Positions 1-7,592 of a stretch of 64,000 nt of DNA are shown in pieces. Both the position numbers and the translations under genes were made by a program. The notes beneath the pieces were generated by a model. It saw only the letters and a program-made list of their open reading frames with translations, was not told the DNA's origin and searched no databases. Position 1 is the stretch's first letter; each line of letters begins with the position of its first letter. The DNA is from Acidobacteriota bacterium (GTDB taxonomy: Bacteria; Acidobacteriota; UBA6911): assembly GCA_963664705.1 (NCBI GenBank), contig OY761556.1, positions 4,192,001 to 4,256,000 on the forward strand, written 5' to 3'.

Positions 1-1483
1 TTGAAGCGACTCCGCAAGCGGCGCCCCACCCGCCATCTTCATTCTGGGAAGACAGCAGGTAATTGATTCCGGACTCGCAAGCCCGCTCCGTCCGGTTGAA
101 TTCACCAAATGCCATCAGAACGCGGGCAGTACCGAAAACGGGATTCCGAAGGTCGGGAGTCTGCTGACTGCCGAACCAAAGCGGAGTCCAGGACCCATCC
201 TCATGCTGCATTTTTTCAAGGAACCTGAAACCTCTGGCAACGGAAATGCTATCACCTTGGCCATTGGCGAGCAAAGCGCGAAGGGCATGGGCAGTTATGT
301 CGGTACAACTCCGGTCAAAAGGGAGCTTGCCCCAGCCCTTGCAGAATGGCGGCCACCCCCCATCCGCATTCTGAAGATTCGTCAGCCAGCGAAGACCTTT
401 TTTGCGATAGGAGAGGAAAGGATCGTTCGTATGAACCGAATTGGCAGTTGCCCGGGCCGCGTTGACGGACAGCGCAAGCAAAACGCTGGAAGTGTCATCG
501 CCATCAGGAACGGAGCCGCTAAGATCGGTCCATCCCCAACCGCCCGGTTCGGCATTCGTGAAGGGATGAACCCTCTGCATTTGATTCCCGGCGAGCCATT
601 CCAGTATGGATGCCGGAGTTTCAACTCCCGCGGAGCTCAGGGCATTCACCGCACAGGAGGTGACCCAGATTGCCAGGTTCGTATCGATAGGCCAGGAACC
701 GTCGGGGCGCTGAAGCGTTCGCAAGAAGGACAGCGCATGCTCCAAAACCTTGAGTGCGGACCCGGAGCATAAGGATCCGCTGGAGTTCATCGAGAGCAAG
801 GACAGCGCGACAAAAGCGGTCAATGGAACCGCTTCGAGAAATCCGCCGGACTCCGGCTGAAGCTTCTCCAGAATTCTCAGAGCTTTCTTTTCGACGAAGG
901 CTCCCAACAGGCTCTGCCCGCGCCGCTTGTCAATCACCAGCCCAACCGCAATCAGTGCCGGCATGGCATAGCTGACCACCTGCAGCCGAAGCGTTTTATA
1001 GAGGCGCTGCGGCATCACGGCTAGAGGATAGGGCAGTCGCGGGACCTGATCCCACGACACCAGGCCAGCCGCTGCACAGGTCATTAAAATCGGGACTGAG
1101 AAGGTATGATCATCGCCATAAATTCGGCGAATGCCTGCAGCGATATCATCGCCCAGGATTTTGTGAAGATAGGCTGCCGCACGGGAATTGTCTCCTCTGC
1201 CGGTGATGCGAAAGGCCGAAAGTACAAGAATCGTTGTCGAAGGATTGCTGATGGATTTTGGGCAATCACCCCACCCTCCATCCTCGCGCTGCGTCCGTTC
1301 CAACCATTGGCAGCCTTTGTCGATGCGTTCCCTGTCCCCGGAATTTCCGTTCAAATGCAGGGCAATAATGGCCAAAGCTCCCGCCAGCGCCGAAGACGAA
1401 AGCCGGCCCTGCCAATGCCCCTCCGGCCCCATCTCGGCCAGAAGCATCTTCACCGCATGGTTCAGGGCTTCCTGTGCCGTCAT
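1..1483 (-). CDS. Squalene-hopene cyclase-like / prenyltransferase-squalene oxidase repeat protein (3' end beyond the window edge; absent from the ORF track)
   Basis: Hand translation from ATG 1483 (ATGA overlap with the upstream stop) gives MTAQEALNHAVKMLLAEMGPEGHWQGRLSSSALA..., open to base 1. It has five QW motifs (QREDGGW, QRPDGSW, QNADGGW, QHEDGSW, QNEDGGW) and a class II cyclase-like motif PDGDDT at 491-508. Confidence 0.9.
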   Translation of the reverse strand, partial: MTAQEALNHAVKMLLAEMGPEGHWQGRLSSSALAGALAIIALHLNGNSGDRERIDKGCQWLERTQREDGGWGDCPKSISNPSTTILVLSAFRITGRGDNSRAAAYLHKILGDDIAAGIRRIYGDDHTFSVPILMTCAAAGLVSWDQVPRLPYPLAVMPQRLYKTLRLQVVSYAMPALIAVGLVIDKRRGQSLLGAFVEKKALRILEKLQPESGGFLEAVPLTAFVALSLLSMNSSGSLCSGSALKVLEHALSFLRTLQRPDGSWPIDTNLAIWVTSCAVNALSSAGVETPASILEWLAGNQMQRVHPFTNAEPGGWGWTDLSGSVPDGDDTSSVLLALSVNAARATANSVHTNDPFLSYRKKGLRWLTNLQNADGGWPPFCKGWGKLPFDRSCTDITAHALRALLANGQGDSISVARGFRFLEKMQHEDGSWTPLWFGSQQTPDLRNPVFGTARVLMAFGEFNRTERACESGINYLLSSQNEDGGWGAACGVAS

Positions 1484-2946
1484 CCTTCAGCCCTTCTCTT
1501 CTTCAGCCTGAACGCGGCATTCCACCACACAACCTGGCTTTTTCCGATAATCTGTGCGGCAATACTGCGAAAAGCCGGTGCACCCGAACCTCGCTCATTG
1601 TCCCACACCAGTCTCGGCACCCATCTGAAATTGAGGCGATAGGATTCAATGACCGTCTGCCAATGAAGGCGATTCAGCCGGGGCAACGAGTCCCCTGGAC
1701 CCAGCGGAGCAAGCATCACCGGAAACACTGACATCCGCTGATCATGGAGTTCCTGAACCCAGCGGAGACTGAGCTCCGCATCGCGCGGTTCTTCGCTCGA
1801 CAATCCGAGTACGATTGAAACCAGTGGGAAAAAACCGGCGCGAATCAGCCTGCGCATTTGCTGCTGCGTGAATCCATACCAGTCATCCGGATGGTATCCT
1901 GCCATCTTCGCCTTCCCGCCATTCCTTGCCAGGAGCCCTCCCGATGCCGTTTCAACTCCGATATTCACCCATAGGAACTCGTGCCGCTGCCCCAGTGTCA
2001 GGAGGCGATGAACTTCCCTCAATTCATCATCGCTGAACTGTGCAATCGAGCTCACGTTCACATGATCGATTTGAAGCAGTCTGATTGCCGGGTTTTTCCG
2101 GATCTGCCGCAGAGCGTCGATTAATGCCTCGGGGTGAACCTGTACACCGCGCGCACCATAGCGAAAGAAATCCTCGCTGAGCAGCGAAAAGCTTCTCTGT
2201 CCGCCGCGAAGATTTGCCTCGGCGTCATTCATGATCGTTTCCAGGGGCAGGTGCCTCATTGGCACATGGGCGATGGTGCAAAATTCGCATCCCAGCCCAC
2301 AACCGCGACTCATCTCAATGGCTCCCATGGACGCCGCACCCATGATGCCAGGTATATCTGCGGGCTGGTCTCCTTCTATCACTCCCAAAGGCCGCGGACT
2401 ATCCAAAAGACGCCTAAAAATGGATGCGATGTTGCCTTCGCAATAACCGTTGAGGATGGTCAGATCCCGCGGTTGTGTTTGGGAGAACTGCCAGGCACCG
2501 GGTCCGCCGATAACAATGGAGGCCTGTGGCGCAAGCCTCTTCACCTTTGCGTAGACCTGCTCAAAGAATACGCGAGCCCAGATTTGTCCGCCCGCGATGG
2601 CCATCATGGTTGATGAATTCATGCCCTTGCCCAGTGGTTCGCCGGTCGCAATGCCGACAATGCGGGTCTCGGGCCCAATCGCATCCTGCAGGCGATCCGG
2701 GTGCACCGCAATGGACCTGATTCCCTCGCGGCACAATGCGGATTCAATGCGCCGTAAGCCAAGCGGCGCACATACGGCCGCAAGATCGCCGGATGACGGC
2801 CGGGGCATCAGAAGACTCTCAAGAACGATACGCGGCGTCGTTGTTGTCTGGCTAGCCGCTACCATTGCGTCAAACAGACACGCATAATTGGCCATCAACA
2901 TCCGGTCTGCCGTAAGGACAATGGGGAAACCGCGTGGTGTGGACAT
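1480..2946 (-). CDS. Radical SAM protein with B12-binding-like N-terminal domain, resembling the GDGT ring synthase (Grs) family
   Basis: CxxxCxxC motif (RGCGLGCEFC) and upstream motifs IVLTADR, APLGLRRIE, IVIGGPGAWQ, SEDFFRYG, NIGVETAS. Confidence 0.85.
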   Translation of the reverse strand: MSTPRGFPIVLTADRMLMANYACLFDAMVAASQTTTTPRIVLESLLMPRPSSGDLAAVCAPLGLRRIESALCREGIRSIAVHPDRLQDAIGPETRIVGIATGEPLGKGMNSSTMMAIAGGQIWARVFFEQVYAKVKRLAPQASIVIGGPGAWQFSQTQPRDLTILNGYCEGNIASIFRRLLDSPRPLGVIEGDQPADIPGIMGAASMGAIEMSRGCGLGCEFCTIAHVPMRHLPLETIMNDAEANLRGGQRSFSLLSEDFFRYGARGVQVHPEALIDALRQIRKNPAIRLLQIDHVNVSSIAQFSDDELREVHRLLTLGQRHEFLWVNIGVETASGGLLARNGGKAKMAGYHPDDWYGFTQQQMRRLIRAGFFPLVSIVLGLSSEEPRDAELSLRWVQELHDQRMSVFPVMLAPLGPGDSLPRLNRLHWQTVIESYRLNFRWVPRLVWDNERGSGAPAFRSIAAQIIGKSQVVWWNAAFRLKKRRAEG

Positions 2947-3843: not shown

Positions 3844-4935
3844 TCAGGATATCGTTGTATACCTAAAAGTCGGGCTTGGCCTGCCCGGCATCAAACATCG
3901 CAATGACTGTACGGCGGCGGATACACCGGTTTTTGCGGAACCACCTATTGCATCCCTCACTATTGTCTCCAGTTCGACGGGCGAGATTTGAACTCTGGCA
4001 TTCAGAATACAGCGCGCCTTTGTTCCCGAAAAAGCGTCCTCCGTGTTTATGGCAACCAATCCGCCCAGGCGCGTCAGGTTGAGCGTGCATTCCCTTTCGC
4101 CCGATTCAATCATAAGTTTAACGTGACCAATTTCCGCATTGCGGCTTTGAAATGATGCCTTCAGGTCATTCATGAGTCGGAAGCCATACTTCGCCCATTC
4201 CACCTGGCCATCGACAGATTCCAGATCAATCGCAGCGTTGAGCCAGCCAAGGACTGCCTCTCCTTCGGCATATCGGTCATAGTCAACCTCAACAATGTGG
4301 CTGCCGGCTTTTTTGCCGCTAAAAACATCGGCGAGCCAGGCTTCCAAACCCTCTCCCGTCCTTGCGGAAATCGCATCTACGGATGACTCGGGAAAGGACT
4401 CGCGAAGGAAATGGAGCATGGTCATGCGCTCGCTTGCACTCAGGGTATCTACCTTATTCAGCAATATTCTATCCGCCTCGAGCATTTGGAGGCGAAGGAT
4501 ATATTGAGCATTCTCATGCATCAGGGAATTTTTCGTCTGCAGCACTTCCCGGACCCGTTCCGGATCCACCAAAACCGTCAGTGGAGCCAGATCAATTTCA
4601 GGATATTTGTCTTTGATCGGCTGAAGAATGGTTGCGGACAGATCGGTGCAACTGCCCACCGGCTCCGCCAGGATTATGCCTGCGCCTTGTTGAGCCAGCG
4701 ATTTCACAGCGCCCATGAACCCCGGGAAATTGCAGCAAAAGCAGCTTCCCGCCACCTCGCGCACTTCGGCTCCCGACCGCATCAGCGTGGCGGTATCCAC
4801 GAGATCGGGCGCCTGATCGTTGCTGACCAGTCCAACCGTTTGTTTATCCCCGATCAGACGCCGTGCAGCTTCACGCAACACAGTTGTCTTCCCGGCACCC
4901 AGAAATCCGCCGACCAGTATTAGCCTAACTTTCAT
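3844..4935 (-). CDS. CobW/HypB-like G3E family metallochaperone GTPase
   Basis: Walker A GGFLGAGKTT, GSCFCC metal motif, AEPVGSC, NKVD, SAxTGEG. Confidence 0.9.
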   Translation of the reverse strand: MKVRLILVGGFLGAGKTTVLREAARRLIGDKQTVGLVSNDQAPDLVDTATLMRSGAEVREVAGSCFCCNFPGFMGAVKSLAQQGAGIILAEPVGSCTDLSATILQPIKDKYPEIDLAPLTVLVDPERVREVLQTKNSLMHENAQYILRLQMLEADRILLNKVDTLSASERMTMLHFLRESFPESSVDAISARTGEGLEAWLADVFSGKKAGSHIVEVDYDRYAEGEAVLGWLNAAIDLESVDGQVEWAKYGFRLMNDLKASFQSRNAEIGHVKLMIESGERECTLNLTRLGGLVAINTEDAFSGTKARCILNARVQISPVELETIVRDAIGGSAKTGVSAAVQSLRCLMPGRPSPTFRYTTIS

Positions 4936-4938
4936 GAA

Positions 4939-5775
4939 TTACTCCATTTCACTTTTTCCGCAGCTGCCACAGCACTTGCCGGCATCGGCTCCCGATTTCA
5001 TCGCTGGCTCCAGGATACGAACAAAGAACTGCGAAGCGAGGACTCCGCCGACCAGCGGAGCCAGAATATACACATGGAAGAAACCGCCCACGCGATCGGG
5101 CAATGCGGCATCCCTCCACCCCATAAGCCATGCGACCATACGGGGGCCAAAATCGCGCGCAGGATTCAGCCCGGCCTGCGTGATCGGCGCGACCAGGCAA
5201 ATAATCGAGGTAACGGTCAAACCTATGAAAACCGGAGCCAGAGCATTGTCCGGTCGACCGACATTGCACCCTTCCGTCAGGGCGAAAATCATCAGCACCA
5301 GGAGAAAGGTGCCGAGGGCCTCCGCTCCAATTGCAACAGGAAGCGAGACCACCGCAGCACTTCCCGGGTCCGGGTAGAACTCGCCAAACATTTTCGCCGT
5401 CTGCACCGATGCAGCCGTTCCCCTCACGATCTGATGCGTCGTTTCGTAAGCCGTCAAGGAGGACGAGAACAGGGCATAAATCATACAGCCCGCGAGGAAC
5501 GCTCCGAGTAATTGAGCGGTCACATAGACCGGGAGCTTGCGAAATGCCATTCGGCCGCTCAACGCCATGGACAGACTGACCGCCGGGTTGAGGTGTGCAC
5601 AGGAAAGATGCCGCGTCAGGTAAATGGAAAGGGTAACGCCTATGCCCCATGCCAGCGCAATCTCCATCAAGCCCCTGTGGGCATTAAAAAGCACCGAAAC
5701 GGCAACCGATCCGCAACCAAACAGCACCAGCAGAAAGGTACCTAAGGCTTCACCGATAAACTCTCTCGTCCGCAT
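4939..5775 (-). CDS. MIP family aquaglyceroporin (GlpF-type) with Cys-rich tail
   Basis: Two NPA boxes (HLNPAV, GLNPARD), where NPARD is the glyceroporin signature. C-terminal CCGSC. Confidence 0.92.
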   Translation of the reverse strand: MRTREFIGEALGTFLLVLFGCGSVAVSVLFNAHRGLMEIALAWGIGVTLSIYLTRHLSCAHLNPAVSLSMALSGRMAFRKLPVYVTAQLLGAFLAGCMIYALFSSSLTAYETTHQIVRGTAASVQTAKMFGEFYPDPGSAAVVSLPVAIGAEALGTFLLVLMIFALTEGCNVGRPDNALAPVFIGLTVTSIICLVAPITQAGLNPARDFGPRMVAWLMGWRDAALPDRVGGFFHVYILAPLVGGVLASQFFVRILEPAMKSGADAGKCCGSCGKSEME

Positions 5776-5822: not shown

Positions 5823-6221
5823 TCACTTTTTTTTGCAGCAGGAATTTTTCGTGCTGCCGCCTCCCGGAATCTTCCCCAGAGCATTCAGCAGGCCGTCGAT
5901 TTGCGCCCGGTAGTGCGTCAAAGTCTCTGTCCATCGCTGCAGACAGGCAACTCCATCCTTGGTTACGGCATAGCTGCGCTTTGCCGGTCCGGCATCTCCC
6001 AACTCCCAATTGGAGGAAACCAACCCCTCCTCTTCCATTGACTTGAGGATTTTGTAAACGCCGCTGGTATCGGGAGGAATCGCTGAAAACATTTGCAGCC
6101 TTTGCAACTGCTGAATGAGATCATAGCCGTGCGTCTTTTCCTGGGCCAGCAATCCAAGGATGGTTGGGCGCAGAAACCGATCCAGATTTCTGCCGGAACA
6201 TATACATTGGTTTAGATCCAT
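5823..6221 (-). CDS. PadR family transcriptional regulator, Cys-containing
   Basis: HGYDLIQQL...VYKILKSMEEEGLV...GPAKRSYAVTKDG. N-terminal CICSG, C-terminal CC, upstream SD GGAGG. Confidence 0.9.
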   Translation of the reverse strand: MDLNQCICSGRNLDRFLRPTILGLLAQEKTHGYDLIQQLQRLQMFSAIPPDTSGVYKILKSMEEEGLVSSNWELGDAGPAKRSYAVTKDGVACLQRWTETLTHYRAQIDGLLNALGKIPGGGSTKNSCCKKK

Positions 6222-6389: not shown

Positions 6390-7592
6390 ATGGGGCTATA
6401 TCCGACTCGGGCACTGGAGCGGGCGTTGAAAATACAATCAGTGATATTGCAGGCAATGAGTGGAAAAATACTGTGGTGCCAGGCAGCCGAGATCATCGGG
6501 ATATCGGACCGATCAATGAGGCGATGGCGAGAACGATATGAGGAACACGGTTACGACGGGCTCTATGATCGCAGGCTAAAGCGGCCGAGTCCAAAACGTG
6601 TTCCGTTAAAAACAGTGGAGAAAGTGCTTCGGCTTTATCGGGAGCAGTACTTCGATTTCAATGTTCGTCATTTCGTAGAAAAGCTGCATAAGGAACATGA
6701 TGTCGATCTGAGCTATACCTGGGTCAAGACAGCACTGCAAACGGCGGGATTGGTAGCCAAGAGTCGCAAGAAAGGGAAACACCGGAAAAAGCGCCCTCGG
6801 CGACCATTGTCAGGCATGATGCTCCATGTGGATGGCAGCACGCATTGCTGGCTGGAGGGCCAACAACACCACGACCTAGTAGCAATTCTGGATGACGCCA
6901 CGTCAGCGGTGTATTACGCACAGCTGGTCGATCAGGAGAGCACAGCGACGGTAATGGCCGGGTTGAAGGAAGTGGTTGAGAAGAAAGGCATCTTTTGCTC
7001 CCTGTATTCGGATCGCGGAAGCCATTTCTTCTACACTCCGGTTGCGGGAGGGCCACCCGATCGTACACGTAAGACTCAAATCGCCAGGGCCCTTGGACAA
7101 TTGGGGATTGAAACGATACCTGCTAACTCGCCGCAGGCTAGAGGGCGGTGTGAACGGTTTTTTGGAACTTGGCAAGGGCGTCTGCCGCAGGAACTCCGGT
7201 TAAAGAAAATCCAGACACTGGAGGCTGCAAATGAGTTCCTACGTAAAGAGTGGATACCTTTCCACAACAAGACCTTTACCGTTCCGGCACAACAGATGGG
7301 AAACGCTTTTGTGCCCTATTCTGGCACTCGTTCTGAGTTAGATAAGATCTTCTCCCACCAGGAGGAAAGAGATGTGGGTAACGACAATACCGTCAAACTT
7401 GGGAAAATCTGTATGCAGATCGAGCCACAAAAGTTTCGCTTCAGCATGGCTCGATGCCGAGTGCTTGTCTGTCGGCATTTGGATGAAACAATAAGCCTTC
7501 ATTACGGTCCCCATGTGCTGGGCCGTTATGATTCCAACGGGAAGGTTTTGAATCAGCCAGCTGTGAAACGAAGCAATAAGAATGCGGCCTGA
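6390..7592 (+). CDS. DDE transposase (ISNCY/IS1202 family)
   Basis: N-terminal HTH and rve-like core (HVDGSTH, LDDATS, YSDRGS, SPQARGRCERFFGTWQGRL). SD AGGAGG. Confidence 0.95.
   Translation: MGLYPTRALERALKIQSVILQAMSGKILWCQAAEIIGISDRSMRRWRERYEEHGYDGLYDRRLKRPSPKRVPLKTVEKVLRLYREQYFDFNVRHFVEKLHKEHDVDLSYTWVKTALQTAGLVAKSRKKGKHRKKRPRRPLSGMMLHVDGSTHCWLEGQQHHDLVAILDDATSAVYYAQLVDQESTATVMAGLKEVVEKKGIFCSLYSDRGSHFFYTPVAGGPPDRTRKTQIARALGQLGIETIPANSPQARGRCERFFGTWQGRLPQELRLKKIQTLEAANEFLRKEWIPFHNKTFTVPAQQMGNAFVPYSGTRSELDKIFSHQEERDVGNDNTVKLGKICMQIEPQKFRFSMARCRVLVCRHLDETISLHYGPHVLGRYDSNGKVLNQPAVKRSNKNAA

Follow-up and report, generated by a model that had tools for sequence, protein, structure and literature searches.

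The locus and its genes

The window analyzed here, a 64,000-nucleotide stretch of an Acidobacteriota genome (assembly GCA_963664705.1, contig OY761556.1, positions 4,192,001 to 4,256,000), carries at its left end a gene for a radical S-adenosylmethionine (SAM) enzyme of 488 amino acids (aa). This gene belongs to a co-oriented run encoding, in order, a PadR regulator, an MIP channel, a CobW-type GTPase, a ferredoxin, the radical SAM enzyme, a cyclase with the squalene-hopene cyclase (SHC) fold, a DUF116-polyprenyl synthase and a prenyltransferase-fold protein. The last five are given below, with positions in the window or, where a gene extends or lies beyond it, on the genome contig (C1).

2956..3765, minus strand: ferredoxin-like protein, 269 aa, two 4Fe-4S motifs, ending 9 bp ahead of the radical SAM gene
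1480..2946, minus strand: Grs-family radical SAM enzyme, 488 aa, with an N-terminal Rossmann-type domain (likely cobalamin-binding), a partial barrel and C-terminal helices
1..1483, minus strand, continuing past the left window edge (C1:4191774-4193483): SHC-like class II terpene cyclase, 569 aa, DxDD motif intact
C1:4190124-4191767, beyond the window and next to the cyclase: DUF116-polyprenyl synthase, 547 aa
C1:4189204-4190127, beyond the window and after the synthase: prenyltransferase-fold protein, 307 aa

The original prediction likened the radical SAM enzyme to the archaeal tetraether ring synthases GrsA and GrsB on the basis of nine ordered motifs. Each of these motifs is present once and in the expected order, at residues 9, 60, 81, 110, 144, 198, 208, 257 and 272, and the cysteines of the radical SAM cluster are C216, C220 and C223 (CxxxCxxC at 216-223). 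The translational coupling to the cyclase-fold gene was also described correctly, as the ATGA at 1480-1483 joins the stop codon of the radical SAM gene and the ATG of the cyclase gene. The ferredoxin-like protein is likely the electron donor.

The cyclase is distinct from canonical squalene-hopene cyclases. It scores 62-112 bits against TIGR01507 (cut-off 431), and two canonical SHCs are encoded elsewhere in the genome. The features described for the SHC-like clade, namely a DxDD motif, a polyprenyl synthase nearby and a length of 550-700 aa, are all found.

Relationship to archaeal GrsA and GrsB

The reference enzymes of Sulfolobus acidocaldarius are presumably Q4J8I0 (saci_1585) for GrsA and Q4JC22 (saci_0240) for GrsB. 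The supplementary tables of a proteomic study name the two genes lost in a grsA grsB mutant and file peptides under both accessions (PMC12107092). The motifs that the original prediction gave for the Grs family reappear in these peptides, APYGLR and DPDHL in GrsA and GGPGAWE in one GrsB peptide (PMC12107092). Peptides of Cgm, sought by motif in the same proteomics table, were not found. Scanning one GrsA motif through metagenomes gave two loci, L005 and L006. The first encodes a 521-aa GrsA-like protein whose nearest named relatives belong to Thermofilum; the second (L006:2010-3036) is a GrsA-like gene without a full-length open reading frame (ORF) and looks frameshifted or mis-assembled. A search of 1.84 billion representatives with the L005 protein returned 699 matches at E 0.001 and 149 at 1e-30, and a second search step reached S. 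acidocaldarius GrsB (P0334 = Q4JC22). The 24 GrsA-like proteins found in a region search include none named as S. acidocaldarius GrsA, which is represented by stand-ins throughout.

The likeness to the Grs family is borne out by computation. The 488-aa protein aligns with GrsB over 458 residues at 24% identity (pairwise E 4e-50), and the similarity runs from the N-terminus through the barrel instead of being confined to the CxxxCxxC core. When GrsB was used as the query against the 15,341 ORFs of the same genome, this protein was the best match (E 2.7e-46, 86% coverage), followed at a distance by a runner-up at 8e-11; it is the sole Grs homologue of its genome. Identity to an archaeal GrsA-like protein is 28% over 430 residues. 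Published searches for Grs homologues use a BLAST coverage of at least 70%, an identity of 20% and E 1e-40 in a genome search (10.1101/2022.08.15.504015). Against GrsB the values among own-genome ORFs are 86%, 24% and 2.7e-46, and against two GrsA stand-ins, both weaker than E 1e-40, they are 81%, 28% and 2e-36 (L005) and 79%, 24% and 5e-28 (P0407).

Two kinds of trees were built. The quick tree (FastTree) contained 173 rows, 22 of them outgroups, and excluded representatives shorter than 470 aa. The careful tree (IQ-TREE, LG+G4) contained 68 hand-picked rows with 8 outgroups, and its bootstrap was not fully settled. The outgroups were other B12-type or MiaB-type radical SAM enzymes of the same genome, with Gmm, Cgm, Ted, HpnP, HpnR and HpnJ absent as named sequences. 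The Grs-like family separates from the outgroups with support of 100/99 in the careful tree and 100 in the quick one, and the 488-aa protein falls inside it rather than outside, the outcome that would have spoken against the original prediction. Within the family it occupies a separate bacterial clade (100/99, IQ-TREE), whose named homologues include Planctomycetes. It is an ortholog of neither archaeal enzyme by this measure: the GrsB clade (100/98) does not include it, and the GrsA-like clade (100/99), made up of stand-ins sharing GrsA peptide motifs, excludes it. A Grs-like group of about 590 aa from the same phylum sits in yet another clade (100/100), and the approximately unbiased (AU) test rejects uniting it with the operon clade (p 1e-34, with two rows beside the operon clade left outside the constraint). 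Quick trees place the operon clade outside all other Grs proteins (93). The careful tree leaves the backbone without a supported order, so no branching order is claimed.

Residues R65, W152, H295, K347, W356 and P409 are shared by every row of the operon clade (34 of 34), the GrsA-like clade (7 of 7) and the GrsB clade (8 of 8), and none of them is the prevailing residue among the 22 outgroup rows. A DHxN motif at 294-297 is specific to the operon clade. Judged by its sequence, the 488-aa protein is a true relative of the Grs family.

The predicted structure is consistent with this placement. Pfam recognizes the radical SAM core alone, slightly below its cut-off, and every NCBIfam family stays below its own cut-off. 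The model (predicted local distance difference test score 94.8) combines a Rossmann-type N-terminus, a CxxxCxxC barrel and a C-terminal helix without an auxiliary cluster, which is the three-part architecture seen in the GrsA/B models of a review (PMC13459092). The N-terminal fold of the model is compatible with cobalamin binding. The top structural match is MgmA, a cobalamin-dependent methylase (Z 24.1, root-mean-square deviation 4.1, 353 residues), followed by RimO and MiaB (Z about 20). Structures of Grs enzymes, sought by sequence and by fold, did not turn up. The three cysteines of the radical SAM cluster are the only invariant ones in the alignment; consequently, nothing points to a sacrificial cluster.

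Conservation of the operon

In a scan of genome contigs, one locus, in a Fimbriimonadaceae record, showed the same five genes (ferredoxin, radical SAM, cyclase, synthase and prenyltransferase-fold). This record presumably belongs to Armatimonadota. A search of plasmids with the 488-aa protein gave no locus. Among 201 Armatimonadota genomes, 21 encode a close homologue of the 488-aa protein and 24 encode the cyclase, including all 21 with the Grs-like enzyme. Twenty Armatimonadota loci could be compared. The ferredoxin gene lies upstream in 18, the other two stopping at a contig edge, and the cyclase gene lies directly downstream in 18; the synthase is present in 16 and the prenyltransferase-fold gene in 15, three of the gaps across all these genes being contig ends. 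The association with a terpene-cyclase-fold gene, which the original prediction had taken as a hint of a shared substrate, is thus conserved (18 of 20 loci and 21 of 21 Armatimonadota carriers). The catalytic motifs are also retained: every one of the 35 cyclases has DxDD, and ASLxHDD occurs in each of the 29 synthases. Small residues ahead of ASLxHDD fit polyprenyl chains of C20 or longer.

The operon type of Grs-like gene is rare in the window's own phylum (2 of 301 genomes; 3 of 60 relatives; 1 of 29 others in the genus). A Bryobacteraceae name points to Acidobacteriota as the likely phylum of these genomes, whereas the acidobacterial PadR model scored below its cut-off. The rarity of the operon in the genus, an IS481-like transposase gene close by and the nearest resemblance to the Fimbriimonadaceae operon are hints that the operon was acquired by transfer.

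Two further features of these loci can be mentioned. In the DUF116 domain of the synthase (L001:7125-8768 and homologues), four cysteines form a conserved pattern that 23 of 29 rows match and that is possibly a metal or Fe-S site. In Armatimonadota operons (L026, L028, L030, L031, L037), a PQQ-type beta-propeller gene is frequently inserted between the cyclase and synthase genes, or a family-4 glycosyltransferase gene stands at the end; these additions suggest a polar head group.

Exchange of the radical SAM gene

The radical SAM position of the operon can be filled by an unrelated enzyme. Among 35 genomes with the cyclase, 25 have the operon-type Grs-like gene, 10 have a Twitch-type radical SAM gene (535-840 bits) and none has both. 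The Twitch-type gene (396 aa) directly follows the ferredoxin gene in 8 of 10 loci and lies on another contig in the other two. Distant Twitch matches (162-178 bits) are found elsewhere in 5 of the 25 Grs-type genomes, and the 590-aa Grs-like type is found, elsewhere in the genome, in 3 of the 10 Twitch-type genomes. In the window's own phylum, 9 of 301 genomes have the close Twitch type; two of these, on contig ends, are without a cyclase match at 1e-60. The Twitch-type protein has no B12 domain and matches SPASM/Twitch families best, though weakly, with none at its cut-off. Three of its C-terminal cysteines are conserved in all 5 rows compared, and its similarity to the Grs-like protein is not significant (E 0.08).

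Two genomes, labeled G049 and G537, have the gene order of Twitch-type operons and their accessory genes (desulfurase-like, GcvH-like, CobW and a small Cys protein), with a Grs-like gene in the slot. In quick trees they nest among Twitch-type operons (99 for the cyclase, 100 for the synthase). Given this shared order, accessory set and tree position, the radical SAM gene has been exchanged in place at least once. The counts overstate independence, because the genomes are kin and many are incomplete. Cobalamin supply and oxygen were considered as causes of the swap and set aside, as the trends are weak and the genomes kin: CobS is found in 7 of 25 Grs-type versus 1 of 10 Twitch-type genomes, and the corresponding figures for heme-copper oxidase matches are 11 of 25 and 7 of 10. 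An oxygenase replacing the radical SAM enzyme was sought in the gene lists of cyclase loci without the Grs enzyme, and none was seen. BLAST gave no support for a supposed fusion between the ferredoxin and the small Cys protein.

The accessory genes bear on a reading in which the product is a sulfur-containing or carrier-bound terpenoid and the occupant of the radical SAM position either introduces sulfur or links the isoprenoid to its carrier. The cysteine-desulfurase-like and GcvH-like genes of the longer operon form, G049 and G537 included, would suit it, as would the structural resemblance to the methylthiotransferases RimO and MiaB. However, neither gene is adjacent to the operon in this window, the desulfurase may merely serve Fe-S cluster assembly, and with the cluster cysteines as the only invariant ones no sacrificial cluster is indicated. 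This reading is therefore regarded as improbable.

The identity of the slot-mate bears on another reading, which we consider the most remote of those weighed. Here a radical would be added across a double bond to build the cyclase substrate, as HpnH adds deoxyadenosine to diploptene, leading to a polar head group. Two of four Twitch-type proteins match HpnH weakly (E 2e-9 and 8e-7), and a glycosyltransferase gene follows the operon in several loci. HpnH is nevertheless far from being the best family of the slot-mate (37 bits, cut-off 225), and a review of these enzymes reports no Grs-family member carrying out such an addition (PMC13459092).

Tetraether lipids and the 590-aa group

Cyclized branched glycerol dialkyl glycerol tetraethers (GDGTs) were the context in which the original prediction placed the enzyme, and a genome search for the tetraether synthase Tes had been suggested. 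Tes is indeed encoded, at G000:C1:2012421-2013905, near NADH dehydrogenase genes and 2.2 Mb from the operon (570 bits, cut-off 450). Three weaker Tes-like genes and a DUF2229 protein are found elsewhere in the genome. One Tes-related radical SAM match, L044 (G000:C1:2243798-2245069), contains a single in-frame TGA, possibly encoding selenocysteine. DUF4070 (PF13282) was tried as a stand-in for Mss and rejected, since the Thermotoga control was silent. Among other carriers of the operon-type enzyme, G517 of the same genus has Tes, and G049 and G537 have full-length matches below the cut-off. Full-length Tes is absent from all 21 Armatimonadota carriers, two of which have partial matches. Most carriers likely have no GDGT substrate, because most of those tested are without Tes.

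The 590-aa Grs-like type behaves differently. It occurs in 32 of 301 genomes of the phylum and is missing from the genome of the window, and no operon genes surround it in any of 15 loci. A full-length Tes-like gene is present in 30 of 31 genomes with this type, 4 of them over the cut-off, a count that stands without a background rate for the phylum. At one locus (G291:C104:36974-40541) the gene of the 590-aa type immediately follows a full-length Tes-like gene in the same orientation. The 590-aa group is the better candidate for ringed branched GDGTs than the operon clade.

That the enzyme closes rings in branched GDGTs or in other membrane-spanning lipids, its position in the operon being incidental, is accordingly considered a slim prospect. 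In its favor, the enzyme is the sole Grs homologue of a genome that has both Tes and a DUF2229 protein, G517 shares Tes, and this role has been proposed for bacterial Grs homologues (PMC10087280; 10.1101/2022.08.15.504015; 10.1101/2024.06.25.600576). On the other side, the enzyme belongs to neither the GrsA-like, the GrsB nor the 590-aa clade and its distribution follows that of the cyclase, present in all 21 Armatimonadota carriers, rather than that of Tes, present at full length in none of them, Tes itself lies far from the operon in this genome, and the separate 590-aa group (AU test above), free of operon genes, is the one that accompanies Tes-like genes. The link to branched GDGTs drawn by the original prediction is thus not borne out.

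Proposed role and mechanism

The enzyme likely tailors the isoprenoid of the operon and not tetraethers, because it is encoded in a terpenoid operon in which an unrelated radical enzyme occupies the same place elsewhere. That the substrate is this isoprenoid can be stated with good confidence. Given this substrate, the formation of a C-C bond is moderately favored. The combined proposal, a cobalamin-dependent enzyme of the Grs family that forms a C-C bond in the polyprenoid of the operon, is tentative, its chances being a little short of even. Ring formation in particular is inferred by analogy with the family. Grs-family members with a known reaction, among those placed in the tree or reviewed, form C-C rings on isoprenoid chains (PMC13459092). 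The Twitch-type partner fits this reading as well, because Gms, a SPASM/Twitch enzyme, forms C-C bonds that join isoprenoid chains (PMC11214058).

The proposed pathway would begin with the DUF116-polyprenyl synthase, whose motifs suggest a head-to-tail chain, probably of C20 or longer. The cyclase, with its DxDD motif, would then protonate and cyclize the chain. The radical SAM cluster would be reduced by the ferredoxin. Hydrogen would be abstracted twice, with cobalamin holding the first radical until the bond closes, as proposed for GrsA/B (PMC13459092). The radical step could come before or after cyclization, and the new C-C bond could close a further ring or connect chains. In Twitch-type operons, the same or an alternative step would be performed via an auxiliary Fe-S cluster. 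The broadest version of this proposal, a widespread squalene-free bacterial pathway to a polycyclic isoprenoid in which one C-C bond is made by either the Grs-family (cobalamin) or the Twitch-type (cobalamin-free) enzyme, is speculative and on balance unlikely.

Several observations weigh against C-C bond formation with cobalamin. The Pfam B12-binding domain is absent from the 488-aa protein at E 0.01 and rare in its relatives (4 of 120 homologues listed), the N-terminal fold resembles response regulators and cobalamin domains alike (Z about 8), and CobS was found in only the minority of Grs-type genomes given above. The reaction cannot be read from the tree, because identity to GrsB is only 24% and the backbone lacks resolution. 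The own genome does encode Tes. The genomes behind the swap are related and mostly incomplete, the trees require only 2 state changes, and a common slot does not prove a common product. Finally, methylation or desaturation is the reaction of the other B12-dependent radical SAM enzymes that modify archaeal isoprenoid chains (10.1101/2025.10.20.683597).

The last point leads to the main rival, in which the same polyprenoid is methylated or desaturated, as by the methylases Gmm, Cgm and Pgm, by the desaturase Ted, or by HpnP and HpnR on hopanoids. We consider this rather unlikely. Most cobalamin-dependent radical SAM enzymes are annotated as methylases (PMC13459092), the closest structural match, MgmA, is one of them, Ted desaturates inert isoprenoid chains (10.1101/2025.10.20.683597), and the operon context suits such a role equally. 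Conversely, the protein groups with Grs, apart from the other B12-type radical SAM enzymes of its genome, and Gmm is described as MoeK5-like and not Grs-like (PMC11214058). Cobalamin-based methylation cannot be the shared step, because the Twitch-type replacement is without a B12 domain; this argument does not touch desaturation.

Other genes of the run and its surroundings

Three further genes of the co-oriented run lie upstream of the ferredoxin gene.

3844..4935, minus strand: CobW-type GTPase, 363 aa, with a homologue ahead of the ferredoxin gene in 9 of 34 related loci
4939..5775, minus strand: MIP-family channel, 278 aa, with a Cys-rich tail, found in 0 of 34 related loci and not a conserved operon member
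5823..6221, minus strand: PadR-family regulator, 132 aa, first of the run, found in 0 of 34 related loci

The CobW-type GTPase is likely a metal or cofactor chaperone. The PadR and MIP proteins both have a Cys-rich C-terminal tail of the kind found in modules that respond to metals or metalloids. An arsenic-related reading of these two genes and their tails was dropped, as they occur in none of the related loci. The IS481-like transposase gene (6390-7592, plus strand) adjoins the PadR gene. A second B12-binding radical SAM gene (556 aa, L001:734-2404, plus strand) lies about 4 kb past the operon on the opposite strand, near a glycosyltransferase gene.

Significance and comparison with known systems

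The operon provides a five-gene set for expression, together with a prediction for the radical step. The product of SHC-like cyclases is expected to be a new polycyclic terpenoid with possible biomarker value (PMC7306690). The natural swap offers a built-in control and, if the two enzymes are isofunctional, would allow cobalamin and Fe-S strategies to be compared for one bond. If the broad two-enzyme pathway outlined above is correct, this would be the first Grs-family enzyme outside tetraether lipids and one half of an isofunctional pair joining inert carbons. The makers of ringed branched GDGTs, which serve as climate proxies, have been inferred from bacterial GrsA BLAST matches (10.1101/2024.06.25.600576). 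Such matches split into at least two groups, one of them bound to a terpene operon, and many 'GrsA' matches in Planctomycetota and Armatimonadota would, if that broad pathway holds, be uninformative on the sources of these lipids.

Bacterial Grs homologues as such are already published. They have been proposed as ring synthases of branched GDGTs in Solibacter (PMC10087280), in four Acidobacteriae metagenome-assembled genomes (MAGs) (10.1101/2022.08.15.504015) and in 94 of 684 Planctomycetota MAGs (10.1101/2024.06.25.600576). Like the 488-aa protein, these homologues are bacterial, pass similar GrsB BLAST thresholds and have a function that is predicted only. This phylum contains two bacterial Grs groups, the operon clade and the 590-aa type without the operon, and each published homologue may belong to either.

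SHC-like class II cyclases have been described as a clade of "unknown function" whose precursor is probably not squalene (PMC7306690; PMC12324236). The neighboring cyclase fits the description of this clade in its catalytic motif, the polyprenyl synthase nearby, its length of 569 aa and its distribution in Acidobacteriota and the Planctomycetes-Verrucomicrobia-Chlamydiae (PVC) group, an assignment made by description and not by tree placement. In their available text, the accounts of the clade mention neither a ferredoxin nor any radical SAM enzyme, Grs-like or alternative, as a partner and draw no connection to Grs (PMC7306690; PMC12324236), although the neighborhood figure of PMC7306690 may show a radical SAM gene. 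No paper tying a Grs homologue to an SHC-like operon was found in a literature search confined to openly accessible papers and the main text of preprints, with the original description of Grs outside its range.

The Twitch-type slot-mate can be set beside Gms and Tes, radical SAM enzymes with auxiliary Fe-S clusters that join isoprenoid chains. It scores weakly to SPASM/Twitch families, the type to which Gms belongs, and has three conserved C-terminal cysteines, so that the likeness is one at the level of families. The 488-aa protein itself shares with GrsA and GrsB of S. acidocaldarius a common family, the fold architecture and the residues R65, W152, H295, K347, W356 and P409. Unlike these archaeal enzymes, its clade is bacterial, is tied to a terpene cyclase operon, carries DHxN at 294-297 and is found in carriers that mostly have no Tes.

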